From an uncultured Zetaproteobacteria bacterium (GTDB lineage: Bacteria > Pseudomonadota > Zetaproteobacteria > Mariprofundales > Mariprofundaceae), in assembly GCA_964503475.1 (NCBI GenBank), contig CAZCZU010000006.1:18610-82609 (forward strand): DNA of 64,000 nucleotides, read 5' to 3'. This document shows positions 40,352 through 61,215 of the stretch, piece after piece. The translations under genes were made by a program, and so were the position numbers. The notes beneath the pieces are model-generated. The model was not told where the DNA came from. It did not search any database and worked only from the letters and a program-made list of their open reading frames with translations. How positions within the stretch are numbered: position 1 is the stretch's first letter; each line of letters begins with the position of its first letter.

Positions 40352-40438
<87 letters not shown>

Positions 40439-48469: not shown

Positions 48470-48612
48470 GGGGGTGAATATCTACCCTACCCCACCCTTG
48501 CAGGCCATGGTCCATCGCTTTCATCGACTTGCAGTGATGGTATGTTTACCGCCTCAACAGGCAGGAAGGGTCAGTGACTTCCGTCATTCGTTTTCAAGGA
48601 TCAGCAGCACGC

Positions 48613-50085
48613 ATGTTTGAACAGACATTCCGCAATATCGATGACGTACTCTGGAAAGAGGCCGGCTGCACTACCGAGCTCGACTACACCGAGCAGACCT
48701 CATGGATGCTGTTTCTCAAGTACCTCGACGATCTGGAGCAGGAGAAGGCACAGCTCGCCGAACTGCACGGCAAGCCTTACACCTTTATCATCGACGAAGC
48801 GCACCGCTGGTCCAGCTGGGCGGCCCCGAAAACGGCCGACGGCAAATTCGATCACAACAAGGCGCTCACCGGCCCCGATCTGATCGACTACGTGGACAGC
48901 GAACTCTTCCCCTATCTCAAAGGCTTCAAGCAGCGGGCCACCGGGCCGGACACCATCGAATACAAGATCGGCGAGATTTTCGGCGAGATCAAAAACAGGT
49001 TCACCAGCGGCTATTCACTCAGAGATGCGCTGGAGCATATCGACGGCCTGCGCTTCCGCTCGCAGAAGGAGAAGCACGAGCTCTCCCACATCTACGAGGC
49101 GAAGATCAAAAACATGGGCAATGCCGGGCGCAACGGCGGCGAGTACTACACGCCGCGCCCGCTGATTCGCGCCATCATCCGGGCGGTTGATCCCAAAATC
49201 GGCGAGCGCATCTATGACGGCGCCTGCGGCTCGGCGGGCTTCCTCTGTGAGGCCCACGACTTTCTGAAATACGATGAACACGGAAAAGTACGCAACGGTT
49301 TAACCACCAGCGATCTGAAAACACTTCAGGCATCCACCTTCTACGGCAAGGAGAAGAAGAGCCTCGCCTACGTGATTGCCATCATGAACATGATCCTGCA
49401 CGGCATCGAAGCGCCCAATATCATTCACACCAACACCCTGGCCGAGAACATTGCCGATATTCAGGAGAAGGATCGCTTCGACGTGGTGCTCGCCAATCCG
49501 CCATTCGGCGGCAAGGAGCGCAAGGAGGTGCAGCAGAATTTCCCGATCAAGACGGGCGAAACCGCCTTCCTCTTCCTGCAGCATTTCATCAAGACCCTGA
49601 AGGCGGGCGGCCGCGCCGGCATCGTCATCAAAAACACCTTCCTGAGTAACACTGACAATGCCTCGGTGAGTCTGCGCCGCGAGCTGCTGGAATCCTGTAA
49701 TTTACATTCCATCCTCGATTGTCCGCAGGGCACCTTCCAGGGCGCGGGCGTGAAAACGGTGGTTCTGTTTTTCGACAAGGGCAGTGCCACGCGCAAGGTG
49801 TGGTACTACCAGCTCGATCCCGGAAGAAGCCTCGGCAAAACCAACCCGCTCAACGATGCCGACCTGGCCGAGTTCGTGGAGCTACAGAAATCGAAAGCCG
49901 ACTCCGACAAATCGTGGTTGGTGGACATCGCCGCTATCGATCCGTCCACCTTCGATCTTTCGGTGAAGAATCCGAACGGCGGTGAGGAAATCGACCACCG
50001 CGACCCGGCCGAGATCATGGCCGAGATCGCCGCCCTCGACAAAGAGAGCTCCGATATCCTGAACTCCATTAAGGCGCTGCTGTGA
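48613..50085 (+). CDS. hsdM: Type I restriction-modification system, DNA methyltransferase subunit HsdM
   Basis: HsdM_N-like N-terminus (FRNIDDVLWKEAGCTTELDYTEQTSWMLFLKYLDD). SAM motif IYDGACGSAGFL and catalytic NPPF (VLANPPFGG). An alternative GTG start at 48574 is possible. Confidence 0.92.
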   Translation: MFEQTFRNIDDVLWKEAGCTTELDYTEQTSWMLFLKYLDDLEQEKAQLAELHGKPYTFIIDEAHRWSSWAAPKTADGKFDHNKALTGPDLIDYVDSELFPYLKGFKQRATGPDTIEYKIGEIFGEIKNRFTSGYSLRDALEHIDGLRFRSQKEKHELSHIYEAKIKNMGNAGRNGGEYYTPRPLIRAIIRAVDPKIGERIYDGACGSAGFLCEAHDFLKYDEHGKVRNGLTTSDLKTLQASTFYGKEKKSLAYVIAIMNMILHGIEAPNIIHTNTLAENIADIQEKDRFDVVLANPPFGGKERKEVQQNFPIKTGETAFLFLQHFIKTLKAGGRAGIVIKNTFLSNTDNASVSLRRELLESCNLHSILDCPQGTFQGAGVKTVVLFFDKGSATRKVWYYQLDPGRSLGKTNPLNDADLAEFVELQKSKADSDKSWLVDIAAIDPSTFDLSVKNPNGGEEIDHRDPAEIMAEIAALDKESSDILNSIKALL

Positions 50086-51308
50086 AAGCTGGTTGGCAAG
50101 TTAAGCCGCTGGGTGATATGAGTCAGTTCCAGCGTGGTCTAACTTACTCAAAAAAAGACGAGGCTGACGCATCGGACAACGTTGTGGTGCGAGCTACGAA
50201 TATTGATTTGGAAACAAACCAACTCGATTTTTCAGAGTTGAAATATATCAGTGAAAAAATTGTCGTTCCTGTGGCTAAGAAGCTTAAAAAAGGGTCTTTG
50301 CTCATATGCACGGCGAGTGGCAGCAAAAGCCATTTGGGCAAGGTAGCTTTCATTGATGATGACTATGATTACTCCTTTGGTGGATTCATGGGGATGCTTA
50401 CCCCAAATGAAGACCTACTGCCAAGATACCTGTTTCACCTGATGACATCAGGGGGCTACAAGGATTTTATCGGGCAGCTTGCTGATGGTGCAAATATTAA
50501 TAATTTAAAGTTTGACGACCTGAAGCGATTTCATGTCCCATTCCCACCTATTGCCGAACAGCGGCGGATTGTGGGGATTCTGGATGAGGCATTCGAGGGC
50601 ATTGCCAAGGCGGTGGCCAATGCCGAAGCCAATCTGAAAAACGCCCGCGAACTCTTCGAAAGCCACCTCAACGCTATCTTCTCCAACCCCGGCCCCGACT
50701 GGACGGAGAATAAGTTCGGAGATATTTGCGACATCAAACACGGCTTTGCATTCAAGAGCGAATTCTTCGTCTCCAATAGCAAGCATGTCCTGCTTACTCC
50801 CGGCAATTTCTTTGAAGCTGGTGGATACCGTGATCGAGGTGATAAACAGAAGTTTTATGACGGGCCTATCCCCGATGGTTTTGTCTTGGAAAAAGGCGAT
50901 CTGTTAATTGCTATGACGGAGCAAGCTGCCGGTTTGTTGGGTAGCTCAATCATTATCCCTGAATCGGGTGTTTTTCTTCATAACCAGCGACTCGGATTAG
51001 TTGTGCCAAAAGAAGGTGTGCCTTGGGACAATAAGTTTTTCGCTCTCGTTTTTAATACTAAAGCGATAAGAAAAGCCATTCATGACGGTGCTTCGGGCGT
51101 AAAGGTCAGACACACATCACCCAAAAAGATTGCCAATATTTCGGTTTCGTTCCCTACATCAGTTGACGAACAACAAGCCATTGTCGCCAAGCTCGATAAA
51201 CTGGCTGCGGAGACGAAGCGGCTGGAGGCGATCTACCGGCAGAAGCTGGCGCTGCTGGCCGAGCTGAAGCAATCACTGCTGCACAAGGCTTTCAGCGGGG
51301 AGTTGTAA
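50082..51308 (+). CDS. hsdS: Type I restriction-modification system, specificity subunit HsdS
   Basis: 408 aa with two target-recognition domains separated by a conserved helix (PPIAEQRRIVGILDEAFEGIAKA) and a C-terminal conserved helix (EQQAIVAKLDKLAAE...LKQSLLHKAFSGEL). Overlaps the hsdM stop. Visibly lower GC. Confidence 0.9.
   Translation: MKAGWQVKPLGDMSQFQRGLTYSKKDEADASDNVVVRATNIDLETNQLDFSELKYISEKIVVPVAKKLKKGSLLICTASGSKSHLGKVAFIDDDYDYSFGGFMGMLTPNEDLLPRYLFHLMTSGGYKDFIGQLADGANINNLKFDDLKRFHVPFPPIAEQRRIVGILDEAFEGIAKAVANAEANLKNARELFESHLNAIFSNPGPDWTENKFGDICDIKHGFAFKSEFFVSNSKHVLLTPGNFFEAGGYRDRGDKQKFYDGPIPDGFVLEKGDLLIAMTEQAAGLLGSSIIIPESGVFLHNQRLGLVVPKEGVPWDNKFFALVFNTKAIRKAIHDGASGVKVRHTSPKKIANISVSFPTSVDEQQAIVAKLDKLAAETKRLEAIYRQKLALLAELKQSLLHKAFSGEL
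51264..51308 (+). repeat. Direct repeat copy 1 (the authentic hsdS 3' end)
   Basis: CTGAAGCAATCACTGCTGCACAAGGCTTTCAGCGGGGAGTTGTAA. It matches 52810-52854 with 2 mismatches, and the last 33 nt are identical. Confidence 0.9.
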
Positions 51309-51402
51309 ACCGTCAGTCCGAATTTTCATCCGACGGAAAAGCACAGTTGACGCAAAAAAAAGTATTTACCCGATTGGTAAATGCATTTAATGTACGCACA
51401 CG

Positions 51403-51732
51403 GTGGATGTATTCTTTTCAACCAATGACTTGAAGAAGCTATGCGAGAACAGGCGGGCAATGGAGCGTCAGTTTGGTAGCCCCTGTGCGAAGAAGCTGCG
51501 GCAACGGTTGTCCGATTTGTGCGCTGCCGAAACGCTGACTGATGTAGTGGCAGGCAGGCCACATCCACTGAAAAGAGATCGGCTGGGGCAGTTCGCACTG
51601 GATTTGCATGGCGGAACCCGGCTGGTGTTTGAGAGTGCGGATGATCCGATTCCGCATTTGGATGATGGAAGCATTGCGTGGCATGAGGTTACAAAAGTGC
51701 GCATCGTGTTTATTGGAGATTACCATGACTGA
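51403..51732 (+). CDS. higB: HigB-like (COG3549, plasmid maintenance killer) RelE-fold toxin
   Basis: 109 aa, GTG start. HPLKRDRLGQFALDLHGGTRLVFE...VRIVFIGDYHD matches the HigB-like pattern (HPLKG.R.G.WS.R...WR..F...V....DYH). The toxin-first order and 8-nt overlap with a HigA-type HTH gene also fit. Confidence 0.72.
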   Translation: MDVFFSTNDLKKLCENRRAMERQFGSPCAKKLRQRLSDLCAAETLTDVVAGRPHPLKRDRLGQFALDLHGGTRLVFESADDPIPHLDDGSIAWHEVTKVRIVFIGDYHD

Positions 51733-52807
51733 ACAAGTTGCAACCTTTGCGCCGGATTGGGTTTCCCCTCCCGGCGATACCATTCTGGACTTGCTGGAAG
51801 AGCGCGGCTGGAAGCAGACCGAGTTTGCCGAGCGCATCGGCTTCACCACCAAGCATGTAAATCAGATCATCAACGGCAAATCGGCGATCACTGAAGATGC
51901 GGCCATCCGGCTGGAGCGTGTGCTCGGTAGTACAGCTCGTTTCTGGATGAACCGCGAAAGCCAGTATCGTGAAGCCTTGGCCAGAGAGGCCGAACTGGAA
52001 GCGCTGGAAAACGATGTGGAATGGCTTACGGAAATCCCTGTCACGCACATGGTGAAGTGCGGATGGATGGCCAAATGCAAAAGCAAGCCTGCGCAGGTGG
52101 CCGAGGCGCTGAAGTTTTTCGGTGTTGCTTCGGTTCCTGCCTGGCGCAATCAGTATGCCGCACCACTTGCTGCGTTTCGTGCGAGCGACAAGTTCGAAAA
52201 AAAACCAGGCTATGTTGCAGCATGGCTTCGGTATGGCGAACGCTGTGCCGATGAAATTCGGACAGCGCCTTTCGACAAAGCCAAATTCAGAGCTGCTCTT
52301 GAAGAGCTGCGCGCATTGACCATCGAGTCCGATCCCGATGTGTTCATCCCAGCTTTGGTGGAAAAATGTGCGGCGGCTGGTGTAGCTGTCGTGTTTGCCC
52401 CCGCGCCGACTGGCTGTCCGGCTTCGGGCGCCACCAAGTGGGTCGATTCCGACAAGGCCTTGTTGATGCTCAGCCTGCGTCATAAGACGAATGACCACCT
52501 CTGGTTCTCATTCTTTCACGAGGCTGGGCATTTGCTGATGCATGGAAAGAAGATGCTGTTTATTGAGGGTAATGGTCTGGATGGTAAACAGGAAGATGAA
52601 GCCAATCAGTTTGCCGCCAATCTGCTGATCCCCAAACAATTCGAAGAACGATTGATGTTCGTGGGGCATACAGCGACTGCGATCCGGGCTTTTGCCAAAG
52701 AAGTAGGTGTGGCACCCGGCATTATCGTGGGCCGGATGCAAAACGATGGCCTTCTTGGATGGGGAACACCACTTAACAAATTGAAAGTTAGTTATCAATG
52801 GGCTTGA
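51725..52807 (+). CDS. HigA-type Xre HTH antitoxin domain fused to an ImmA/IrrE (COG2856, peptidase M78) metalloprotease domain
   Basis: Start ATG 51725. The N-terminus PPGDTILDLLEERGWKQTEFAERIGFTTKHVNQIINGKSAITEDAAIRLERVLGSTARFWMN is a HigA-family HTH. The C-terminal part carries HEXXH (FFHEAGHLLMH, codons at 52517-52531). Confidence 0.8.
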   Translation: MTEQVATFAPDWVSPPGDTILDLLEERGWKQTEFAERIGFTTKHVNQIINGKSAITEDAAIRLERVLGSTARFWMNRESQYREALAREAELEALENDVEWLTEIPVTHMVKCGWMAKCKSKPAQVAEALKFFGVASVPAWRNQYAAPLAAFRASDKFEKKPGYVAAWLRYGERCADEIRTAPFDKAKFRAALEELRALTIESDPDVFIPALVEKCAAAGVAVVFAPAPTGCPASGATKWVDSDKALLMLSLRHKTNDHLWFSFFHEAGHLLMHGKKMLFIEGNGLDGKQEDEANQFAANLLIPKQFEERLMFVGHTATAIRAFAKEVGVAPGIIVGRMQNDGLLGWGTPLNKLKVSYQWA

Positions 52808-52809
52808 GA

Positions 52810-52854
52810 CTGAAACAATCCCTGCTGCACAAGGCTTTCAGCGGGGAGTTGTAA
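52810..52854 (+). repeat. Direct repeat copy 2: an orphan duplicate of the hsdS 3' end (encodes LKQSLLHKAFSGEL-stop with no hsdS body upstream)
   Basis: CTGAAACAATCCCTGCTGCACAAGGCTTTCAGCGGGGAGTTGTAA begins 3 nt after the stop of the HTH-ImmA gene. The downstream flank also partly resembles the flank after the real hsdS stop (CCGTCA..GCACAGTT). Confidence 0.9.
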
Positions 52855-52944
52855 GCCCCGTCAAGCAGGCGCACAGTTCGCGGCAAGAAACCCCGCCTCA
52901 GGCCATGCGCCCCATGCGTACCCTCGGCGGGTTACTTTTTATCC

Positions 52945-53001
52945 AGCCCCCGGCACTACGCCCGCCACCCATCCGGCCCGGCCGAACCCGGGGGCGTTTT
53001 T
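52945..53001 (+). terminator. Possible rho-independent terminator after the orphan hsdS 3' end
   Basis: GCCCCCGG (52945-52952) pairs with CCGGGGGC (52988-52995) and is followed by GTTTTT. The loop is long, so confidence is low. Confidence 0.3.
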
Positions 53002-53109
53002 CACTCAGTTTATGTTCTGCCGAATTGATAAACCGTGAGTTGCTTTTCCCTCCGAAAAACAAACCGGTTATGGTGGTCATATTGAAGAATCGGGTGCTAT
53101 AGTTCTGCC

Positions 53110-54267
53110 ATGGAAAGGGTCGAGGCGATCAATCCCGATCGCTTGAAATGGTGTAGTGAGCAATACGGTATCGCGCTGGATGATCTGGCGCGGCAACTTC
53201 GTATCGCGCCTGAAACCATGGAAAAGGCCGTGAACGGCGAACCTGCCCTCACCTTCAACCAGCTCGAAAAAATCGCCAAATGCTTTAATCGCGGCATTCT
53301 GTTCTTTCTGGAAGAGGCACCCGTGAGCGAAGAGCAAGTCTTCTCTCCCCAGTTCCGTACGCTCTCCAGCCAGAAGACCGAGCTGACGCCCAATCTGAAA
53401 AACATCATTCAGCGCTTCGAAAAGCAGCGCGAAGGCTATATCGGACTGCTGGAGGATCTGGACGAACCAATCGACCGCCCCTGGCTGCCCGAAGGCATGC
53501 CCGACACAGGCAGAGGCAACATCAAGGAGACGGCCGCCTTTATTCGCTCCTGGCTCGGCATCGGGTCTCGTACCTCTTTCGAAGAGCTGCGCAGCGCCGT
53601 GGAGAGCAAAGGCATCCTAGTGTTCGTCTCCAATGGCTATCAGGGGCAGTGGAAGATCGCCAAGGAAAACCCGGTGCGCGGCTTCTCCATGTATTACGAC
53701 CACTATCCGGTGATCGTGATCAAAAAGCTGGATGCCAGGGCGGCCCAGACCTTCACGATGATTCACGAGCTCGGCCATCTGCTGCTGCACCGGGAAACCA
53801 TGCTCGATGAAGCAGACGATTTTTACAGCCATCAGGGGAAAGAGCGCGAGGCGAATGCCTTTGCCGGAAACCTGCTTGTCCCCGATGCATTTGTTCACAC
53901 CATCAACATGCGGGACTTTCCGTACGATACCGTCAGCGGCTATGACAATTACCTCAAAAGCCATGCAAGGCAGTGGGGTGTCAGTGTCGAGGTGGTTCTG
54001 CGGCGGTTGATGGATGAGGGGAGACTGGCTTCCGAGCATTACGAAGCCTATCGACAATGGAGGGCCGAACAGCCGGCGCAGGAAGCGGGTGGCGCTATGC
54101 GCTATCGCTACCAGGAACCGACCAATATGTTTGGTGACACATTCGTGCGCACCGTGCTCGACGCATACCACAGCGATCACATCACGCTCGCCAGAGCCAG
54201 CTCCTACCTCGACAACCTGAAGGTGGATTATATCCACGAGCTGGAAGCGAGATATGCACGCCTTTGA
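53110..54267 (+). CDS. HTH domain fused to an ImmA/IrrE (COG2856, peptidase M78 / DUF955) metalloprotease
   Basis: 385 aa. The N-terminus (LKWCSEQYGIALDDLARQLRIAPETMEKAVNGEPALTFNQLEKIAKCF) is Xre-like. HEXXH occurs as MIHELGHLLLH (53764-53778), with a downstream EREANAFAGNLLVP typical of ImmA/IrrE. Confidence 0.8.
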   Translation: MERVEAINPDRLKWCSEQYGIALDDLARQLRIAPETMEKAVNGEPALTFNQLEKIAKCFNRGILFFLEEAPVSEEQVFSPQFRTLSSQKTELTPNLKNIIQRFEKQREGYIGLLEDLDEPIDRPWLPEGMPDTGRGNIKETAAFIRSWLGIGSRTSFEELRSAVESKGILVFVSNGYQGQWKIAKENPVRGFSMYYDHYPVIVIKKLDARAAQTFTMIHELGHLLLHRETMLDEADDFYSHQGKEREANAFAGNLLVPDAFVHTINMRDFPYDTVSGYDNYLKSHARQWGVSVEVVLRRLMDEGRLASEHYEAYRQWRAEQPAQEAGGAMRYRYQEPTNMFGDTFVRTVLDAYHSDHITLARASSYLDNLKVDYIHELEARYARL

Positions 54268-54736
54268 TGCCTCATCGCTGATTCACGCTTGGGATAATTA
54301 TCCGATCGACAAATTCCCGCCGCTCTGGGAGTGGATGGCCGGGCAAATTCAGAGTGGAGACTTTGTCGTTTCAGAGGTCGCGTTGAAAGAGATCGGCAAC
54401 AAGGCACCCGAATGTGCTACCTGGCTCAAAGAGCAGGAAATCCAGAGGCTTCCTATGTCCAACGCGATTGCGCAGGAGGCCTTACGCATCAAAAGGCTGC
54501 TCGGCATCGAAGACGACCGGTATCATCCCAAGGGTGTGGGAGAAAACGATATCCTGATCATCGCCACCGCCAAAGTGCATGACCATACGCTTGTCACGGA
54601 GGAGGGATTTCAGGCTGTATTCCCCGCCGTGCCCGCCAAGAGTCGAATCCCGACCGTTTGCAACATGGGGGAGGTCCGTGTGGAGTGGTGCAAATTTATC
54701 GATCTTATCAAGGCAAGCGATGCCGTATTTTCCTGA
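54254..54736 (+). CDS. DUF4411-family protein (predicted PIN-like nuclease fold)
   Basis: 160 aa. The N-terminus FDASSLIHAWDNYPIDKFPPLWEWM and ENDILIIATAKVHDHTLVTEE match my recollection of DUF4411/PIN-like acidic motifs. 14-nt overlap with the preceding ImmA gene. Confidence 0.65.
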   Translation: MHAFDASSLIHAWDNYPIDKFPPLWEWMAGQIQSGDFVVSEVALKEIGNKAPECATWLKEQEIQRLPMSNAIAQEALRIKRLLGIEDDRYHPKGVGENDILIIATAKVHDHTLVTEEGFQAVFPAVPAKSRIPTVCNMGEVRVEWCKFIDLIKASDAVFS

Positions 54737-54790
54737 CCGATTTTTGATGGATACCACCCTCAACATGACCAAAGGCCTGCGAACGGTCGT

Positions 54791-54826
54791 TTTGTGTAAG
54801 GTGAAATCGAAAATACTTTACACAAA
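54791..54826 (+). promoter_or_regulatory. 9-bp inverted repeat upstream of hsdR (candidate operator or RNA hairpin)
   Basis: TTTGTGTAA (54791-54799) and TTACACAAA (54818-54826) are separated by 18 nt, 60 nt upstream of the hsdR ATG. Confidence 0.3.
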
Positions 54827-54886
54827 CGCCCTTGTGACTGGCGTACTTGATACAAACGTACAGATCGTTTCGGACTGCTCTGCCTC

Positions 54887-57247
54887 ATGTTGAACGAAGC
54901 CGAGACCCGAGCCGAACTGATCGACCCTGCCCTGCGCGAGGCGGGCTGGGGTGTGGTCGACGCAAGCCGTGTGCGCCGGGAATACATCACGCCGGGCCGC
55001 TTACAGGGAGCAGGAAGGCGCGCCAAGCCGGAGATTGCCGATTACGTATTGGTCTATCGCAATCGTAAGCTGGCGGTGATCGAGGCGAAGAAGCAGGCGC
55101 TGCCCTATACCGAGGGCGTACAGCAGGCCAAGACCTACGCCGACAAGCTGAATATCCGTTTTACCTACTCCACCAATGGCGAACGCATCTACGGCATCGA
55201 CATGGATACGGGGGAAGAGGGTGAAATCGAGCGCTACCCTTCACCGGAAGAGCTGTGGCGCATGACCTTCCCCGAAGAGAGCTCATGGCGCGATCGCTTT
55301 GCCGATGTGCCATTCGAGGACAAGGGTGGCACCTGGGAGGCGCGCTACTATCAGGAGAACGCCATCAATGCCGTGCTCAAGGCGGTCGCCGATGAGAAAG
55401 AGCGCATCCTGCTCACACTGGCGACAGGCACCGGCAAAACCTTCATCGCCTTCCAGCTGGCATGGAAACTGTTCCAGAGCCGCTGGAACCTGAGCAGGGA
55501 ACCATCGCGCCGCCCGCGCATTCTCTTTCTGGCCGACCGCAACATTCTCGCCGATCAGGCCTACAACGCCTTCTCGGCCTTTCCCGAGGATGCACTGGTT
55601 CGCATCGCGCCGGACGATATCCGCAAGAAGGGGCGCGTTCCCAAGAACGGCAGCATCTTCTTCACCATCTTCCAGACCTTCATGAGCGGCACGGATGAGC
55701 AGGGTGAACCGAGCCCCTACTTCGGCGAATATCCTCCCGACTTCTTCGATTTCATTGTCATCGACGAATGCCATCGCGGCGGGGCCAACGACGAATCCAC
55801 CTGGCGCGGCATTCTCGAATACTTCTCTCCTGCCGTACAACTCGGCCTGACCACCACACCGAAACGCAAGGACAACACCGACACCTACGCCTATTTCGGC
55901 GAGCCGGTTTATGTCTATTCGCTGAAAGAAGGCATCAACGACGGCTTCCTGACCCCGTTCCGGGTACGCCAGATCGCCACCACGCTGGATGAGTATACCT
56001 ACACCTCGGACGACACTTTGGTGGAGGGCGAGCTTGAGACCGGAAAGGTATACGAAGAGAAAGATTTCAACCGCACCATCGAGATCGAGGAGCGGGAGCT
56101 GTACCGCGTGCAGACCTTCATGCAGATGATCGATCAGCGCGAGAAGACGCTGGTGTTCTGCGCCAATCAGGGCCATGCAGCTCTGGTGCGCGATCTGATC
56201 AACCAGGCAAAGAGCCATAGCGATCCGAACTACTGTGTACGCGTGACCGCCAATGATGGTGAGCGAGGGGAAGAATATCTGCGTTTGTTCCAGGATAACG
56301 ACAAATCGATCCCGACCATCCTCACCACCTCGCAAAAACTCTCCACGGGCGTGGATGCACGCAATGTGCGCAATATCGTGCTGATGCGGCCGGTCAATTC
56401 GATGATCGAGTTCAAACAGATTATCGGGCGCGGCACTCGCCTGTTTGACGGCAAGGATTACTTCACCATTTTCGATTTTGTAAAAGCCCACAAACATTTC
56501 AGCGACCCGGACTGGGATGGTGAGCCTGATGATCCGGAGAACTGTCCTAAGTGCGGATGCAGGCCATGCCAGTGTGAAAAGCCGGAACCGAAACCATGCA
56601 AAATATGTGGAGCACAGCCTTGCATCTGTGTAAAGGAACCGCCAAGGAAGAAGGCGCGGGTGAAGTTGCGCGATGGTAAAGAGCGCTCCATCCAGCATAT
56701 CTCGATCACCACCTTCTGGGGGGCGGATGGCAAACCGCTCTCGGCATCGGAATTCCTTGAACTGCTGTTCGGGCAACTGCCGGAGTTTTTCAGGGATGAG
56801 GACGAACTGCGTGCGATCTGGTCGATGCCGGATACGCGCCACAAGTTGCTCGACGGGCTGGCCGAGAAAGGCTTCGGCAGAGAGCAGCTGCTGGAGATGC
56901 GCAAGGTGATCGATGCTGAGGACAGCGACCTGTTCGATGTGTTAGCGCATGTCGCCTACGCGCTACAGCCGCTGGCGAGGGTTGAACGAGCCGCCAACGC
57001 CAAGGAGAAAATCCACTCATCATTCGATGAAAAGCAGCAGGCATTTCTTGAGTTTGTGCTGAACCAGTATGTTTCCCTTGGCGTGGATGAGTTGGACCAG
57101 GAGAAGCTCGGAACGCTTCTGGAACTCAGATATCACTCGCTGGCTGATGCCATTGAGGAGCTCGGAAGGCCCGAAGAAATCAGGTCGATGTTTATCGGAT
57201 TCCAGAAATTCCTGTATGCCGAAGCATCTTCTTTGAACTCAAACTAG
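54887..57247 (+). CDS. hsdR: Type I restriction enzyme R subunit HsdR, type IB (EcoEI/EcoAI-like) architecture
   Basis: 786 aa. N-terminal PD-(D/E)xK nuclease (ADYVLV...VIEAKK), SF2 helicase motifs (LATGTGKT, VIDECHRG) and an EcoEI_R_C-like C-terminal domain (FWGADGKPLSASEFLELLFGQLPEFF...DLFDVLAHVAY). Confidence 0.9.
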   Translation: MLNEAETRAELIDPALREAGWGVVDASRVRREYITPGRLQGAGRRAKPEIADYVLVYRNRKLAVIEAKKQALPYTEGVQQAKTYADKLNIRFTYSTNGERIYGIDMDTGEEGEIERYPSPEELWRMTFPEESSWRDRFADVPFEDKGGTWEARYYQENAINAVLKAVADEKERILLTLATGTGKTFIAFQLAWKLFQSRWNLSREPSRRPRILFLADRNILADQAYNAFSAFPEDALVRIAPDDIRKKGRVPKNGSIFFTIFQTFMSGTDEQGEPSPYFGEYPPDFFDFIVIDECHRGGANDESTWRGILEYFSPAVQLGLTTTPKRKDNTDTYAYFGEPVYVYSLKEGINDGFLTPFRVRQIATTLDEYTYTSDDTLVEGELETGKVYEEKDFNRTIEIEERELYRVQTFMQMIDQREKTLVFCANQGHAALVRDLINQAKSHSDPNYCVRVTANDGERGEEYLRLFQDNDKSIPTILTTSQKLSTGVDARNVRNIVLMRPVNSMIEFKQIIGRGTRLFDGKDYFTIFDFVKAHKHFSDPDWDGEPDDPENCPKCGCRPCQCEKPEPKPCKICGAQPCICVKEPPRKKARVKLRDGKERSIQHISITTFWGADGKPLSASEFLELLFGQLPEFFRDEDELRAIWSMPDTRHKLLDGLAEKGFGREQLLEMRKVIDAEDSDLFDVLAHVAYALQPLARVERAANAKEKIHSSFDEKQQAFLEFVLNQYVSLGVDELDQEKLGTLLELRYHSLADAIEELGRPEEIRSMFIGFQKFLYAEASSLNSN

Positions 57248-57492
57248 CTAGGTACTGAAAAGGTCTCCTTCATCCAAGTGTAGAGCTGGACTGTGGTGAG
57301 CTCTTCGAGCGGGATATCCTCGAACGCATCGTGCGGATCCTGATCTCTTAAGCAGAACTGGTAGGTGACCACCTCGGGGGCATGATCGTGCATGATCAGC
57401 ATGGTGTAAGTCCCGGGGACATCATACTTAATTGGCCGCCAGCTTTGCATGGGGTATATCCCGGTATATACTTTCATCATGTTTGTCTGCAA
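57244..57492 (-). CDS. Hypothetical 82-aa protein; the C-terminal ~50 aa are paralogous to the ORF at 60009..60341 (copy A, chimeric N-terminus)
   Basis: LIMHDHAPEVVTYQFCLRDQDPHDAFEDIPLEELTTVQLYTWMKETF compared with LIMHDQAPEVVTYQFCLRDQDPFDEFEDMPLDELTTARLYTWMKETF. Its stop overlaps the hsdR stop through the CTAG palindrome at 57244-57247. It may be a pseudogene remnant. Confidence 0.4.
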   Translation of the reverse strand: MQTNMMKVYTGIYPMQSWRPIKYDVPGTYTMLIMHDHAPEVVTYQFCLRDQDPHDAFEDIPLEELTTVQLYTWMKETFSVPS

Positions 57493-57940
57493 GGTGATCG
57501 ATGCACTGGACCGGAATGATGTGCCCTACACCCTGGTCGGCGGCTATGCGCTGGTGCTGCATGGCGTGGTTCGCGGTACGGTCGACATCGATATCGCCAT
57601 CTCCCTTAATGCCGAGGTATTCAAGCGCTGTGAATCGGCGCTGCAATCGATCGGTCTTGCCCCCCGCCTGCCGGTGACCGCCGAAGAGCTGTTTCACTTC
57701 AGGGAGGAGTACATCGCCAGACGCAATCTGAAGGCGTGGTCGTTTCACAATCCCGCCAATCCGCTGGAGGTGGTCGACATCCTGATCACCGAAGATGCCG
57801 AAGCGATTGAAAGCGTCGATAAGCAGGCCTTCGGCAGGCATATCCATGTGGCGGCCGTGCCTGAACTGATCGCCATGAAACAGAAAGCGGGCCGGCCGCA
57901 GGACATCGAAGATATCAAGGCGCTGGAGCGACTGCTGTGA
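57479..57940 (+). CDS. Minimal Pol-beta-fold nucleotidyltransferase family protein
   Basis: Start taken at ATG 57479 (MFVCKVIDALDRNDVPYTLVGGYALVLHGVVRGTVDIDIAI, a GG..(n)..DxD NTase motif). The C-terminal LIAMKQKAGRPQDIEDIKAL motif is common in small NTase TA components. Confidence 0.65.
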   Translation: MFVCKVIDALDRNDVPYTLVGGYALVLHGVVRGTVDIDIAISLNAEVFKRCESALQSIGLAPRLPVTAEELFHFREEYIARRNLKAWSFHNPANPLEVVDILITEDAEAIESVDKQAFGRHIHVAAVPELIAMKQKAGRPQDIEDIKALERLL

Positions 57941-58191
57941 GGCCGGTGCAATACTTTTCCGACGCATACCTTGAGCAGTGCAGGCATGTAACGCCTGAGC
58001 AGGCGCTCACCTTTCTGGAAGAGTTTCGCCTGCTGCAGCAGCCCGGCAAAGCAGCCCCATCCAAGCTGATCAGCCTGAAGGTGCCCGAACCGCTGCTGGC
58101 CGCCTTCCGCCAACGCTGCGACAACGAAGGAATCAAATACCAGACCCAAATCAAACAGCTGATGCAGGAGTGGCTGATCACGCCCCTCTGA
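57937..58191 (+). CDS. Small ribbon-helix-helix / BrnA-like (CopG-type) protein
   Basis: 84 aa. GTG start overlaps the NTase stop (GTGA). The C-terminal KLISLKVPEPLLAAFRQRCDNEGIKYQTQIKQLMQEWL resembles the BrnA/CopG-like antitoxin pattern (I.L..P..LL..FK......G..YQT.I). Confidence 0.5.
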   Translation: MRPVQYFSDAYLEQCRHVTPEQALTFLEEFRLLQQPGKAAPSKLISLKVPEPLLAAFRQRCDNEGIKYQTQIKQLMQEWLITPL

Positions 58192-58208
58192 ATGCCTGGC
58201 ACGCCACC

Positions 58209-58404
58209 TTAATCGGCAGCTGAGAAGCGCTCCTTCATCCAGGTGTAGAGCCGGGCGGTGGTGAGCTCATCCAGCGGCATATCCTCGAATTCGTCGAAGG
58301 GATCCTGATCTCTGAGGCAGAACTGGTAGGTGACCACCTCGGGGGCCTGATCGTGCATGATCAACAGGATGCGCTTGCCCGTTTTCAGGCAGTCGATGGT
58401 GATG
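58209..58404 (-). pseudogene. 3' fragment (copy B) of the small ORF found intact at 60009..60341
   Basis: 58231-58404 is identical by eye to 60030-60203 (174 nt), and homology ends abruptly at 58404. Reading upstream in frame reaches a TAA with no start codon, so the fragment is non-coding. Confidence 0.85.
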
Positions 58405-58460
58405 ATCGGTGAATTTCGCCGAAATATGGCAGCTTGTTAAACCGACAGGGGCTCCGGGGC

Positions 58461-58489
58461 TTGAATAAACGTCTCACCTGTTCCAATAT
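58461..58489 (+). promoter_or_regulatory. Sigma-70-like promoter candidate for abiEi
   Basis: TTGAAT (58461-58466), a 17-nt spacer, then CAATAT (58484-58489). It lies 30 nt upstream of the abiEi ATG. Confidence 0.4.
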
Positions 58490-58518
58490 GTAGGTACTTA
58501 TGCATAAAGGCCGACGTT

Positions 58519-59139
58519 ATGGAACATGGTGGCGATACAAAAAGCGCAACTGAACAGATCTTTGCCCTGCTGAAAAAAGAGGGTGTGCTGCGCCCTCGCG
58601 ATCTTGAGAAGCATCAGATTCCACGCCAATACCTGAGTCTCCTGTACCGGCGCGGTCTGCTGGAGCGCACGGCACGTGGTCTCTATATCGCGGCCCATGC
58701 TGAACTATCCGAAAAGCAAACGATTGCCGAAGTGAGCAAGCGCATTCCCAAGGGGCGCATCTGCCTGCTCTCTGCACTCGTGGTGCATGAAATCACTACC
58801 CAATCACCGTTTGAGGTGTGGATAGCCATTGATAAGAAGGCGCGTCTGCCGCAGGTGAAGGACCTGCCGGTCAGGATTGTGCGCTTCTCCGGGGTGGCGC
58901 TTGATGAGGGCTTTGATTACCGGAACATCGATGGGGTGAAGGTGCCTGTTTATAACGCAGCCAAGACCGTGGCCGACTGCTTCAAATACCGGAACAAGAT
59001 TGGTCTGGATGTGGCTATCGAAGCACTGAAAGATGGATGGCGTGAGAAGAAGTTCACCATGAGCGAACTATCGAAATATGCTGAGGTCTGCCGGGTAAAG
59101 AAGGTGATGCAGCCCTATCTGGAGTCGCTGGCGCTATGA
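58519..59139 (+). CDS. abiEi: AbiEi-family type IV toxin-antitoxin antitoxin / transcriptional regulator
   Basis: 206 aa with an N-terminal wHTH (IFALLKKEGVLRPRDLEKHQIPRQYLSLLYRRGLLERTARGLY) and an AbiEi C-terminal domain. 4-nt overlap with abiEii. Confidence 0.85.
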   Translation: MEHGGDTKSATEQIFALLKKEGVLRPRDLEKHQIPRQYLSLLYRRGLLERTARGLYIAAHAELSEKQTIAEVSKRIPKGRICLLSALVVHEITTQSPFEVWIAIDKKARLPQVKDLPVRIVRFSGVALDEGFDYRNIDGVKVPVYNAAKTVADCFKYRNKIGLDVAIEALKDGWREKKFTMSELSKYAEVCRVKKVMQPYLESLAL

Positions 59140-60005
59140 GTCAGCAATCAAATATCACTGCATCCATCCGCGCCAGGTTGCTCAACCGGTCACGACAAGA
59201 GAGAACAGATTTTCAGCGAATGCTTACCAGTTACGGGCTGGAGCGATTGCTCTATCGCCTTTCGGTTTCTGCATACCGGGATGAGTTTGTGCTCAAGGGA
59301 GCGATGCTCTTCTCCTGCTGGAGTGGCGATCTCTATCGCGCCACCAGGGATGTCGATTTTCTCAAGATGGGTGAGGCGTCCATGGCCTATCTTGGGCAGG
59401 TGTTTGCTGATCTGTGTGAGCAGGCCGTCGAGCCTGATGATGGATTAGTGTTCGACAAGGCATCGATCAAGGTGGCCGAGATCAGGGAAGAGGACTCCTA
59501 CGGCGGTATCCGGGTGACGATGAAGGCCACGCTGGGGAATGCGCGAATGCCGATTCAGGCGGATATCAGCATCGGCGATGCCATCACTCCGGCAGCAGGG
59601 GAGATCGAGTTCCCTACCCTGCTTGAAATGCCGGCACCGAAACTGCGCGCCTACCCGGTGGAAACCGTGATTGCCGAGAAATTTGAGGCCATGGTCTCTC
59701 TGGATATGGCCAATAGCCGGATGAAAGACTTTTACGATATTTGGGCCATCCGGAAGTTTATGCAGCCTGATCCGAAACTGCTGGCCGAAGCAGTTGCCAA
59801 TACATTCAGGAGAAGAGGAACAGAGCTTCCCTCTGATGTTCCCACGGCTTTGACGGATGCTTTTTCCAAAGATGAAAGCAAACAGAAACAGTGGGAGGCT
59901 TTTGTGAAGCGCGCAGGAGTCAGCCATAGTGCAACTTCGACACTGCATGAAACGGTTGAAGCGATCAGGCCATTCTTGATGGATGCGGCAGTTCCGGGGA
60001 CATAA
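59136..60005 (+). CDS. abiEii: AbiEii/AbiGii-family nucleotidyltransferase toxin (DUF1814)
   Basis: 289 aa. N-terminus SIRARLLNRSRQERTDFQRMLTSYGLERLLYRL, then FVLKGAMLF...TRDVDFL (NTase motif) and DFYDIW. Confidence 0.88.
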   Translation: MSQQSNITASIRARLLNRSRQERTDFQRMLTSYGLERLLYRLSVSAYRDEFVLKGAMLFSCWSGDLYRATRDVDFLKMGEASMAYLGQVFADLCEQAVEPDDGLVFDKASIKVAEIREEDSYGGIRVTMKATLGNARMPIQADISIGDAITPAAGEIEFPTLLEMPAPKLRAYPVETVIAEKFEAMVSLDMANSRMKDFYDIWAIRKFMQPDPKLLAEAVANTFRRRGTELPSDVPTALTDAFSKDESKQKQWEAFVKRAGVSHSATSTLHETVEAIRPFLMDAAVPGT

Positions 60006-60008
60006 TAC

Positions 60009-60341
60009 TTAATTCGCTGCTGAGAAGGTCTCCTTCATCCAGGTGTAGAGCCGGGCGGTGGTGAGCTCATCCAGCGGCATATCCTCGAATTCGTCGAAGG
60101 GATCCTGATCTCTGAGGCAGAACTGGTAGGTGACCACCTCGGGGGCCTGATCGTGCATGATCAACAGGATGCGCTTGCCCGTTTTCAGGCAGTCGATGGT
60201 GATGGCATCGGCCGGGATGCCGCGCTTGCGCATATGCTTGTTCACCCCGATCAACGGATCGATCTTCTCGAAATCGCGCTGGATATCGGCCTGGGCTGCG
60301 GTGGCCCGCTCGTAGACCTGGGTTAACGGTGTCTGCGTCAT
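60009..60341 (-). CDS. Hypothetical 110-aa protein of unknown family (copy C, intact)
   Basis: Intact ORF whose stop lies 3 nt from the abiEii stop. Two further partial copies in the island (57244.. and 58209..) share its C-terminal half. I recognised no family motifs. Confidence 0.6.
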   Translation of the reverse strand: MTQTPLTQVYERATAAQADIQRDFEKIDPLIGVNKHMRKRGIPADAITIDCLKTGKRILLIMHDQAPEVVTYQFCLRDQDPFDEFEDMPLDELTTARLYTWMKETFSAAN

Positions 60342-60467
60342 GCCAGCTCCCCCTTTCGATAAGCCCCGAACATAACAGCCCCCCTCCCCCGGACAAGTGA
60401 CGGCCTGCGATTGTATCCATACTTATTTTATGGCTAAACTTACCTCAAGGAGTGAGGGGAGGATGCC

Positions 60468-60623
60468 ATGGAAACAGAAGAGCAGCAGAAACGGGGCATG
60501 CCCCTGGGCGCCAAGGTGTTTATCGGGGTGCTGATCCTCGTCTTTATCCTGGTCGGCCTCGAGATGGTGGTGACCACCATGTTCATCGACAAATTCGCCC
60601 CGGCCGCCAGGCACAGCCACTAA
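60468..60623 (+). CDS. Candidate 51-aa single-TM small membrane protein
   Basis: ATG 60468 is preceded by GGAGG (60458-60462). Translation: METEEQQKRGMPLGAKVFIGVLILVFILVGLEMVVTTMFIDKFAPAARHSH-TAA, with one clear hydrophobic helix. Below the ORF-track length cutoff. Confidence 0.35.
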   Translation: METEEQQKRGMPLGAKVFIGVLILVFILVGLEMVVTTMFIDKFAPAARHSH

Positions 60624-60655
60624 CCCCCTGCCATCCATACCTCCTCTCACCAACT

Positions 60656-60691
60656 TTGACATTCCTTATTCCGGAATCCAGAATAAGGAAT
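60656..60691 (+). promoter_or_regulatory. Promoter with an embedded palindromic operator upstream of the wHTH gene
   Basis: TTGACA (60656-60661), a 17-nt spacer, then CAGAAT (60679-60684). A perfect 11-bp inverted repeat ATTCCTTATTC (60661-60671) / GAATAAGGAAT (60681-60691) spans the spacer and the -10. A GAGGTG SD precedes GTG 60706. Confidence 0.5.
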
Positions 60692-60705
60692 TATCGAGGT
60701 GTGAT

Positions 60706-61215
60706 GTGGAACTCAAGGCTCTGGATCTTTATGTGGCACTGAAACTGGTCGTTCTCAGAAACGAACCATGCGCCATGCAATCGATCGGCGAAGCTCTGGG
60801 CATGAGTGCCTCCAGGGTACACGCCTCCATCCACCGGCTGATCAAGGCCAGGCTGGTACGCAAGGACAAGGGCTACAAACCCATTCTGGCCAATCTTAAA
60901 GAGTTTATCGTGCATGGTGCCGCCTTCGCCTTTGTACCGGAAATTGGTGAGCCGACACGTGGGCTGCCGACGGCATCGTTTGCCCCACCTCTTGAGCAGG
61001 CATTTGTCGATTCGGGAGCGCTGCCGCATGTCTGGCCCGACCCCGAAGGAGAGGTGCGCGGCATCTCCTTTTCGCCACTGCACAAGGCCGCTCCCAAGGC
61101 AGCCCGCAAAGACCGGGAACTGTACGAACTGCTGGCCCTGGTGGATGCCATCCGCGGTGGCCGGGCCCGGGAGAAGCGGATGGCAATCGAGATCATCAGC
61201 CAAAGGCTCACCTGA
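60706..61215 (+). CDS. Winged-helix (MarR/AbiEi-like) DNA-binding protein, putative antitoxin/regulator
   Basis: 169 aa, GTG start. The N-terminal ALDLYVALKLVVLRNEPCAMQSIGEALGMSASRVHASIHRLIKARLV is wHTH-like. Its stop is 1 nt before the ATG of the NTase gene. Confidence 0.55.
   Translation: MELKALDLYVALKLVVLRNEPCAMQSIGEALGMSASRVHASIHRLIKARLVRKDKGYKPILANLKEFIVHGAAFAFVPEIGEPTRGLPTASFAPPLEQAFVDSGALPHVWPDPEGEVRGISFSPLHKAAPKAARKDRELYELLALVDAIRGGRAREKRMAIEIISQRLT

Follow-up and report, generated by a model that had tools for sequence, protein, structure and literature searches.

What does a gene for a fused helix-turn-helix (HTH) and zinc-peptidase protein do beside a gene for a DUF4411 protein, and does it matter that the two lie within a restriction operon? 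The question is raised by a stretch of 64,000 nucleotides from an uncultured Zetaproteobacteria bacterium (contig CAZCZU010000006.1, positions 18,610 to 82,609), hereafter referred to as the window, in which two overlapping genes, here called A and B, are found at 53110–54736. A preliminary description presented them as a candidate stand-alone toxin or abortive-infection module, in which the activity of a PIN-like nuclease may be controlled by proteolysis of an HTH-bound or inhibitor state. Our analysis makes it likely that the pair is a type II toxin–antitoxin (TA) or abortive-infection module of the VapBC52 type, Rosmer-like in its layout, consisting of a self-cleaving protease-antitoxin (A) and a PIN tRNase (B), which is mobile and often resides in the slot between the hsdS and hsdR genes of type I restriction-modification (R-M) operons. 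This reading is based on domain identities, folds and motif conservation, on the strict pairing and overlap of the two genes, on their promoter-like architecture and their frequency of embedding among hsd genes, and on homology to the VapBC52 system of Mycobacterium tuberculosis.

The two proteins and their homology to VapBC52

The product of gene B is a full-length match to the Pfam family DUF4411 (E = 8e-20; score 71.6 bits, cut-off 23.5) and a weaker one to the PIN family (E = 6e-6). Its homologs (n = 490 at E ≤ 1e-3) are nearly all exactly 160 residues long, with 53–69% identity. The AlphaFold (AF2) model of B has a predicted local distance difference test score (pLDDT) of 94.9 and a predicted template modelling score (pTM) of 0.90, and when it was compared with the PDB by Foldseek, the top 47 matches were all VapC/PIN proteins (probability 1.0; template modelling (TM) scores of 0.6–0.7), including Rv0301, VapC3, a plasmid-borne VapC (MvpT), VapC11, FitB, and PAE2754. 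The PIN-like nuclease that had been read from the motifs FDASSLI (residues 4–10), ENDILIIA (97–104), and LVTEE (113–117) is thus borne out by model, structural matches, and alignment alike: 54254–54736 encodes a VapC-type PIN fold with an acidic active site, in which D5 (codon at 54266–54268), E46 (54389–54391), D99 (54548–54550), and E117 (54602–54604) are invariant in an alignment of 38 B homologs. The clade also has further invariant features beyond this tetrad, namely WDNYP (residues 13–17), C54, C136, the acidic residue E97, and a KIPxVC motif.

The product of gene A matches Pfam Peptidase_M78 (E = 7e-19) and, at residues 18–60, HTH_26 (E = 1e-4), and has 1396 homologs at E ≤ 1e-3. The HTH and the peptidase are fused in a single open reading frame (ORF) in all homologs, and in the window the pair has no additional small HTH gene beside it. 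Fifteen RmrA models of PADLOC match A, the best of them with E = 1.2e-22 over residues 7–376, and the NCBIfam model antitox_spr1629 matches below its own cut-off. In the AF2 model (pLDDT 83), a peptidase core at residues ~170–262 is preceded by a helical region and followed by a C-terminal helical region (277–382) that ends in four helices at 333–341, 343–354, 360–366, and 372–382. The closest Foldseek matches of the core are CapP (7t5t), IrrE/PprI (3dti, and the PprI structure 8sln with bound single-stranded DNA (ssDNA)), and M. tuberculosis PrpR, while the N-terminus resembles CapH, HipB, and SinR. Both Pfam and Foldseek therefore agree with the earlier assignment of an Xre-like HTH and an ImmA/IrrE domain. 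The HELGH motif was located at residues 219–223 (53764–53778), and the downstream signature EREANAFAGNLLVP starts at E245; H219, E220, H223, E245, and D233 are each present in all of 193 A homologs. The linker at residues 75–90 has low pLDDT yet is conserved in sequence, with invariant F82, R83, and K89 (among the 193 homologs, F82 is found in 192 and R83 in every one). This conserved, disordered linker with its FR motif was recognized independently of the VapBC52 paper; by analogy with that system, F82-R83 is the probable self-cleavage site of A.

The preliminary description held that the pairing had been noted without a published mechanism, a statement that is outdated. DUF4411 was placed in the PIN superfamily by Matelska 2017 (PMC5499597), where DUF4411.1 genes were reported to lie downstream of genes for HTH-DUF955 fusions and a TA system under control of the protease, with self-cleavage of the HTH, was proposed. 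Zinc-peptidase-antitoxin systems were given the name RosmerTA by Millman 2022, and Ernits 2023 (PMC10440598) linked the ImmA antitoxin node to PIN-like toxins as a prediction only. The mechanism itself was then characterized, together with the structure, for M. tuberculosis VapBC52 (Rv2515c/Rv2514c; PDB 9vzy, 9vzz) by Singh et al. (Nucleic Acids Research, June 2026; PMC13273310).

In that system, VapC52 is a PIN tRNase that cuts anticodon or variable loops and is inactivated by each of the substitutions D6A, E48A, D99A, and E117A. VapB52 binds a VapC52 dimer of “open” form with 1:2 stoichiometry, the direct contact being documented by the crystal structure, by isothermal titration calorimetry (Kd 267 nM), and by pull-downs. 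The HTH-like N-terminal domain of VapB52 is needed for toxin binding, the C-terminal four-helix domain occludes the active site, and the middle domain, a zinc peptidase of the IrrE/CapP kind (H216, H220, E245), is auto-inhibited by a “cysteine switch”, C229. Upon exposure to ssDNA, VapB52 cleaves itself, probably at the FR motif F75-R76, and the N-terminal domain is removed (PMC13273310). The proteolytic control of an HTH-containing inhibitor state that the preliminary description had surmised has thus been demonstrated by experiment for a homolog of the window pair.

The homology extends over both proteins. When a 2026 version of the PDB was searched with the profiles, 9vzy and 9vzz were found under the names “DUF4411 family protein” and, in complex with it, a 393-residue “HTH cro/C1-type domain-containing protein”. 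The A profile matches 9vzy_A (VapB52) with an hmmsearch E value of 1.8e-32, profile positions 10–380 aligning with chain residues 5–385, and the B profile matches 9vzy_D (VapC52) with E = 1.6e-5. BLASTP gives 31% identity between A and VapB52 (E = 5e-35) and 26% between B and VapC52 (E = 3.5e-10). Neither 9vzy nor 9vzz was among the best 50 Foldseek matches listed for B (PDB library up to April 2026). What the two systems share is the two-gene architecture, a DUF4411 PIN toxin whose tetrad D5/E46/D99/E117 corresponds to D6/E48/D99/E117 of VapC52, and a three-domain antitoxin of like length (~385–415 residues) with an HExxH plus Glu zinc site, the FR motif, and a helical C-terminal domain.

With these correspondences as a guide, a mechanism can be proposed for the window pair, for which the tRNase activity, the 1:2 complex, the ssDNA trigger, self-cleavage, and the role in phage defence or addiction are all taken over from VapBC52. 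B would be a Mg2+-dependent PIN endoribonuclease, most likely a tRNase that cuts anticodon or variable loops. A would bind a dimer of B, with its N-terminal HTH-like domain clamping the toxin from outside and its C-terminal four-helix domain plugging the active site, and its central IrrE/CapP-like zinc peptidase would serve as a built-in trigger. Upon a stress signal (in VapBC52, ssDNA from phage replication or DNA damage), A would cut itself at F82-R83, and removal of the N-terminal domain would release B and arrest translation. Within the hsdS-hsdR slot, the pair would probably act as a second layer of defence beside restriction.

Pairing, junction, and promoter

Conservation was followed in a set of 93 related loci, made up of 80 genomic loci, 12 viral contigs from IMG/VR, and one plasmid. 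Gene A lies directly upstream of B in all of them (80/80, 12/12, and 1/1), so the two genes remain neighbours in 93/93 loci, which speaks for the preliminary description. The pair occurs in Pseudomonadota, Chlorobiota, Planctomycetota, Nitrospirota, Bacteroidota, Chloroflexota, Firmicutes, Acidobacteriota, and other phyla, and the pairwise distances of A and B are correlated (r = 0.79–0.83), as would be expected of two genes that diverge together.

All the elements described earlier for the two overlapping ORFs were found in place, including the 14-nucleotide overlap, in which the ATG of B starts at 54254 and the TGA stop of A ends at 54267. The overlap is exactly 14 nucleotides long in 80/80 genomic loci and also in the plasmid copy, and the invariant Leu378-Glu379 codons of A form a GGAG-like Shine-Dalgarno sequence for B. 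We therefore expect B to be translationally coupled to A through this fixed junction.

The start of A is of a different kind. A TANNNT hexamer ends 6–15 nucleotides (mode 8) before the ATG of A in 60/73 loci, compared with 4/73 in a control window, while a Shine-Dalgarno-like motif precedes A in only 1/73 loci. Since a −10 box directly precedes the ATG and a Shine-Dalgarno sequence is absent, the mRNA of A is probably leaderless or nearly so. In the window, a terminator-like hairpin (52977–52992) is found upstream of the promoter-like site, and judging from these sequence features the pair looks like an autonomous transcription unit. The proposed mechanism accordingly has A and B as a transcription unit of their own. 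An operator-like inverted repeat at the A promoter was considered as well and rejected: the best arm in the 45 nucleotides upstream averages 4.23, versus 4.08 in shuffles and 3.96 in the control window. The apparently compensatory GCGGG/CCCGC and CTGAG/CTCAG pairs at the promoter were dropped along with this idea.

The cassette is mobile: plasmids, predicted viral contigs, and chromosomal islands all carry it. The plasmid copy is on the conjugative Pseudomonas tremae plasmid p2 (NZ_CP066272.1; 2078–3692), directly after the genes for a replication initiator and HU, and carries only the labels “XRE family transcriptional regulator” and “DUF4411 family protein” from the Prokaryotic Genome Annotation Pipeline (PGAP). 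No B homologs were found in GenBank phages (INPHARED); those on viral DNA are the ones on the 12 predicted viral contigs in IMG/VR. A locus identical to that of the window was found on four Joint Genome Institute (JGI) contigs. In the locus of a Lacipirellulaceae metagenome-assembled genome (2227–5528), an insertion sequence (DDE_Tnp_1) splits A at about residue 258; B is intact, and a 112-residue ORF that remains of the C-terminus of A still overlaps it. It may be that B is tolerated when A is incomplete, that the C-terminal domain is enough by itself to neutralize B, or that the locus is decaying.

The restriction operon and competing explanations

In the window, the pair lies inside a type I R-M operon, in the order hsdM, hsdS, a module at 51403–52807, A/B, and hsdR, all on the plus strand (Table 1). 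The preliminary description had seen neither the placement between hsdS and hsdR nor the adjoining second HTH-peptidase module. Its term “stand-alone” holds in so far as the pair appears to have its own promoter, but not with regard to its position: here, as in roughly half of the close relatives, a type I R-M operon surrounds it.

Table 1. Positions in the window of the gene pair, its domains and control elements, and neighbouring genes
Feature	Position	Strand	Annotation
Promoter-like site of the pair	53074..53103	+	TGGTCA-18 nt-TATAGT; −10 preceded by TG and ending 7 nt upstream of the A ATG
Gene A	53110..54267	+	385 aa; VapB52-type/RmrA-like antitoxin (predicted): HTH, IrrE/CapP-like Zn peptidase, helical C-terminal domain
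A residues 1–67, Xre/Cro-type HTH N-terminal domain	53110..53310	+	HTH_26; model helices at 9–67; aligns to VapB52 N-terminal domain
A F82-R83, “FR motif”, probable self-cleavage site	53353..53358	+	Junction of N-terminal and middle domains; aligns to VapB52 F75-R76
A Zn-peptidase active site	53764..53844	+	H219-E220-x-x-H223 (53764–53778); third ligand E245 (53842–53844)
A residues ~333–382, four-helix C-terminal domain	54106..54255	+	Aligns to VapB52 C-terminus; equivalent of the domain that occludes the active site
Translational-coupling junction	54242..54267	+	Shine-Dalgarno-like TGGAAG (A codons L378-E379) 7–12 nt before the B ATG; 14-nt overlap
Gene B	54254..54736	+	160 aa; DUF4411/VapC52-type PIN toxin, predicted tRNase
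hsdM	48574–50085	+	Pfam N6_Mtase, HsdM_N; PADLOC MTase_I, E = 1e-161
hsdS	50082–51308	+	Pfam Methylase_S
Small ORF	51403–51732	+	109 aa; faint YoeB/RelE-like hint, E = 0.11
HigA-type HTH fused to second M78 peptidase	51725–52807	+	360 aa; PADLOC PD-Lambda-2_B, E = 5.5e-28; TIGR02607 HigA
hsdR	54887..57247	+	EcoEI_R_C-type C-terminus; Pfam ResIII, EcoEI_R_C, HSDR_N; PADLOC REase_I, E = 3e-138; 150 nt downstream of B
AbiEi/AbiEii	58519–60005		AbiEii, E = 2e-48

How often the pair is embedded was counted for one hsd family only, so that other R-M types near “non-embedded” copies would be missed, and the query, of which the 80 genomic loci are the nearest relatives, itself lies among hsd genes. 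Within this scope, 39 of the 70 classifiable related loci have the pair flanked by hsd homologs in the hsdS-hsdR slot. An hsdR homolog is found downstream of B on the same strand in 33 of the 65 loci with at least 3 kb of downstream sequence, and hsdM upstream together with hsdR downstream in 16 of the 36 with ample flanks. The distance from the B stop to the hsdR start, available for 27 embedded loci, is 4–80 nucleotides in 10, 117–246 nucleotides in 7, and, with other cargo in between, more than 700 nucleotides in 10. Embedded and non-embedded loci are interspersed on the A+B tree, and hsd genes are missing from the surroundings of the pair in at least 22 close relatives, on all 12 viral contigs, and on the plasmid. 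HsdM and HsdR diverge together (r = 0.81), whereas A and HsdR are less closely correlated (r = 0.48; Mantel p = 0.001), which suggests that in part the pair has moved together with the hsd genes and in part the two have been reshuffled. Defence genes, such as AbiE, a PD-Lambda-2-like module, and helicases, are abundant near the loci of the pair.

The block around the window pair, from ~48500 to 61000, has a GC content of 51–57%, compared with 62–65% in its flanks, and this low GC content points to a defence island acquired by horizontal transfer. Neither an integrase nor a flanking tRNA was seen at the island (the sole tRNA in the window is a tRNA-Leu at 40352–40438), and an Rfam scan of 47–61 kb gave zero matches. 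Downstream of hsdR follow a DUF6036 nucleotidyltransferase with a CopG/BrnA-like partner (57449–58191) and then AbiEi/AbiEii. The DUF6036 pair is flanked by two copies of a 152-nucleotide direct repeat (57255–57406 and 58220–58371; 86% identical), each of which encodes a similar small minus-strand ORF (82 and 51 residues); the repeat resembles either the boundary of a cassette or a small gene that has been duplicated. The overlapping ORFs at 51403–52807 on the plus strand make up a second TA-like module that shares the hsdS-hsdR slot with the A/B pair, so that two different HTH-peptidase “antitoxins” stand side by side inside one restriction operon. At 54791–54826, 60–95 nucleotides upstream of hsdR, we also observed a 12-nucleotide inverted repeat (TTTGTGTAAGGT / ACTTTACACAAA) with a 12-nucleotide spacer, which was matched in none of 100 window shuffles. 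It is present in this organism's locus only; its absence from the related loci led us to reject it as a feature of the family, and it may be a local regulator site for hsdR.

How is this setting to be understood? In our preferred reading, a self-cleaving VapBC52-type defence module has repeatedly settled in the slot. Several points weigh against this reading. At 26–31% identity, the substrate and the trigger of VapBC52 cannot be transferred with certainty, and defence by an intact pair is unproven even there: overexpression of VapC52 protects Mycobacterium smegmatis from phage D29 and leads to cleavage of D29 tRNAs, but co-expression of VapB52 and VapC52 gave no phage protection (PMC13273310). 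The Lacipirellulaceae locus with its split A raises the possibility that B is not always lethal in the absence of full-length A. B matches zero models in PADLOC (E ≤ 0.01) or NCBIfam, and for this reason automated defence finders would not call the pair. Finally, the cysteine switch is absent from the whole clade. None of the 193 A homologs has a cysteine at residues 224–245, the switch position (L232 in the window) always being I, V, or L, and from this alignment the gate of the peptidase may differ from that of VapB52. The adjoining D233 is invariant in the A clade and also present in VapB52.

A more tentative possibility, which relies on the same mechanics and is compatible with the preferred reading, is that the pair acts in addiction: post-segregational killing would stabilize the DNA that carries it, be it the hsd island, a plasmid, or a prophage, and there would be no dedicated antiphage role. 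The place of the pair beside the rep and HU genes of a conjugative plasmid, its presence on predicted viral contigs, the low-GC and hence horizontally acquired host island, and the lack of phage protection by the intact VapBC52 pair are all in keeping with such a role, and the stabilization of defence islands by TA systems was discussed by Matelska 2017 (PMC5499597). What favours defence is the recurrent insertion of the pair at the same slot of a defence operon and its defence-rich surroundings, which fit “guilt by embedding” (Payne 2024), an approach with a high validation rate. Moreover, a protease that senses ssDNA would be a natural sensor of infection, and the related Rosmer systems do defend against phage.

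That 39 of the 70 classifiable loci have the pair between hsdS and hsdR could also mean that it is coupled to restriction itself, A being a C-protein-like controller that drives or represses an A-B-hsdR transcript from an internal promoter, whereby HsdR levels and toxin release would answer to one signal, or the pair being a PrrC-like backup that fires when restriction is blocked. We consider this unlikely. The short gaps between B and hsdR in 10 of the 27 embedded loci imply co-transcription, the −10 element just upstream of A is conserved, and the histories of A and HsdR are partly correlated. Leaderless mRNAs are likewise known for C.PvuII and lambda cI. In addition, the N-terminal domain of VapB52 is closest in structure to the R-M controller protein C.Csp231I (PMC13273310). 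Set against this are the hsd-free copies on the plasmid, on the viral contigs, and at 22 or more genomic loci, which mean that the pair works without Hsd proteins and which indirectly make its control by Hsd unlikely. A conserved operator-like inverted repeat was not found around the A promoter, the window palindrome upstream of hsdR has no counterpart at the related loci, and the other cargo between B and hsdR in 10 of the 27 embedded loci is what a generic cargo hotspot would show. The idea that B serves as an alternative DNA nuclease for the Hsd complex was rejected, as B always travels with A, is often free of hsd genes, and has a tRNase as its homolog.

It is also rather improbable, in our view, that a broader form of this coupling applies, in which hsd-embedded A doubles as a restriction controller, its HTH autoregulating the leaderless A-B-hsdR transcript and its self-cleavage both freeing the toxin and shifting HsdR expression, or in which the module fires when restriction is disabled. 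This proposal was put forward jointly with the suggestion that the peptidase of the A clade may be gated by something other than a cysteine switch, for example the invariant D233. In either form of this coupling, if true, the TA pair and type I restriction would be integrated into a single regulated system.

Least probable, and in our opinion very unlikely, is a switch of the ImmR/ImmA kind, in which A would be a fused repressor and antirepressor that lifts the repression of transcription by cleaving itself, and B an induced nuclease rather than a toxin restrained through protein contact, in line with the expression-control model of Matelska 2017. ImmA, IrrE, and CapP indeed all act by cleaving HTH repressors, and A combines an Xre-type HTH with a probably autoregulated, cI-like leaderless promoter. 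However, VapB52 contacts its toxin directly and occludes the active site with its C-terminal domain (PMC13273310), A of the window aligns to VapB52 over all three domains, and the strict translational coupling and co-divergence of A and B indicate a physical complex.

Should the VapBC52-type reading be right, the mechanism of that system would hold for a large clade of environmental bacteria that spans phyla, and a clade without the cysteine switch would offer a direct test of whether the switch is needed for activation. The recurrent residence between hsdS and hsdR also provides a tractable case in which to ask whether embedded cargo is merely co-located or functionally coupled, with the conserved leaderless-type promoter and the fixed 14-nucleotide junction as clear experimental handles.

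Relation to known systems

The hsdS-hsdR slot is well documented as a site of embedded defence genes, including PrrC, TgvAB, and the systems of Payne 2024. In the supplements of the latter, DUF4411, PF14367, Peptidase_M78, and PF06114 are all absent, and hence we found no earlier mention of the pair as embedded cargo there. PrrC-EcoprrI, TgvAB (Vibrio cholerae VPI-2), and the embedded systems of Payne 2024 share with the window pair a position between hsd genes of the same orientation, and B resembles PrrC in being a predicted nuclease of the tRNA anticodon loop that would act as a suicide backup. The window pair has no homology to PrrC, which is an ABC-ATPase-like anticodon nuclease, or to GmrSD. 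Furthermore, PrrC is silenced by direct contact with Hsd proteins, whereas the window pair has an antitoxin of its own and is also found where hsd genes are lacking.

With RosmerTA (RmrA/RmrT; RmrTA of Gordonia phage Kita, Ernits 2023; RipAB of Streptococcus pneumoniae, 2025), the pair shares an antitoxin with an HTH and an ImmA/IrrE zinc peptidase and the two-gene layout of a TA-type defence system. The toxins differ: B matches no RmrT model, and the characterized Rosmer toxins depolarize the membrane (RmrT-D5) or target DnaN (RipA) and are not PIN RNases. CapH/CapP of the cyclic oligonucleotide-based antiphage signalling systems (CBASS), ImmR/ImmA of ICEBs1, and DdrO/IrrE of Deinococcus have the same peptidase fold and respond to a signal of DNA damage or ssDNA by cleavage of an Xre-type HTH protein. 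In A of the window, substrate and protease are instead fused, so that cleavage is predicted to occur in cis, and the proposed output is release of a bound toxin, not derepression. A also has no GAF domain and no cysteine switch, a device that auto-inhibits CapP as well as VapB52.

Canonical VapBC systems have in common with the pair the VapC PIN fold and an antitoxin gene that lies upstream of the toxin gene and overlaps it. Their VapB proteins, however, are small (8–13 kDa, ~70–110 residues) and of the ribbon-helix-helix (RHH), AbrB, Phd, or MerR type, whereas A has 385 residues and an enzymatic domain, and the VapBC52 homolog further departs from the canonical systems by its 1:2 stoichiometry and “open” toxin dimer. 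VapBC52 itself is the nearest known relative in the sense set out above, and the two differ, beyond their low identity, in several features. In all 193 members of the window clade, I, V, or L takes the place of VapB52 C229; WDNYP, C54, and C136 of B are not found in the aligned VapC52 sequence, which reads RIPDVC at the KIPxVC site; and the window copy is embedded among type I R-M genes, a setting not mentioned in PMC13273310. In the literature searched, we did not find reports of the missing cysteine switch of this clade, of the leaderless-type promoter with the fixed 14-nucleotide junction, or of the embedding in type I R-M operons. The kind of system as such was already predicted in 2017 and its mechanism characterized in 2026, and from the alignments the window pair appears to be a distant member of the VapBC52 kind, possibly with a differently gated protease.

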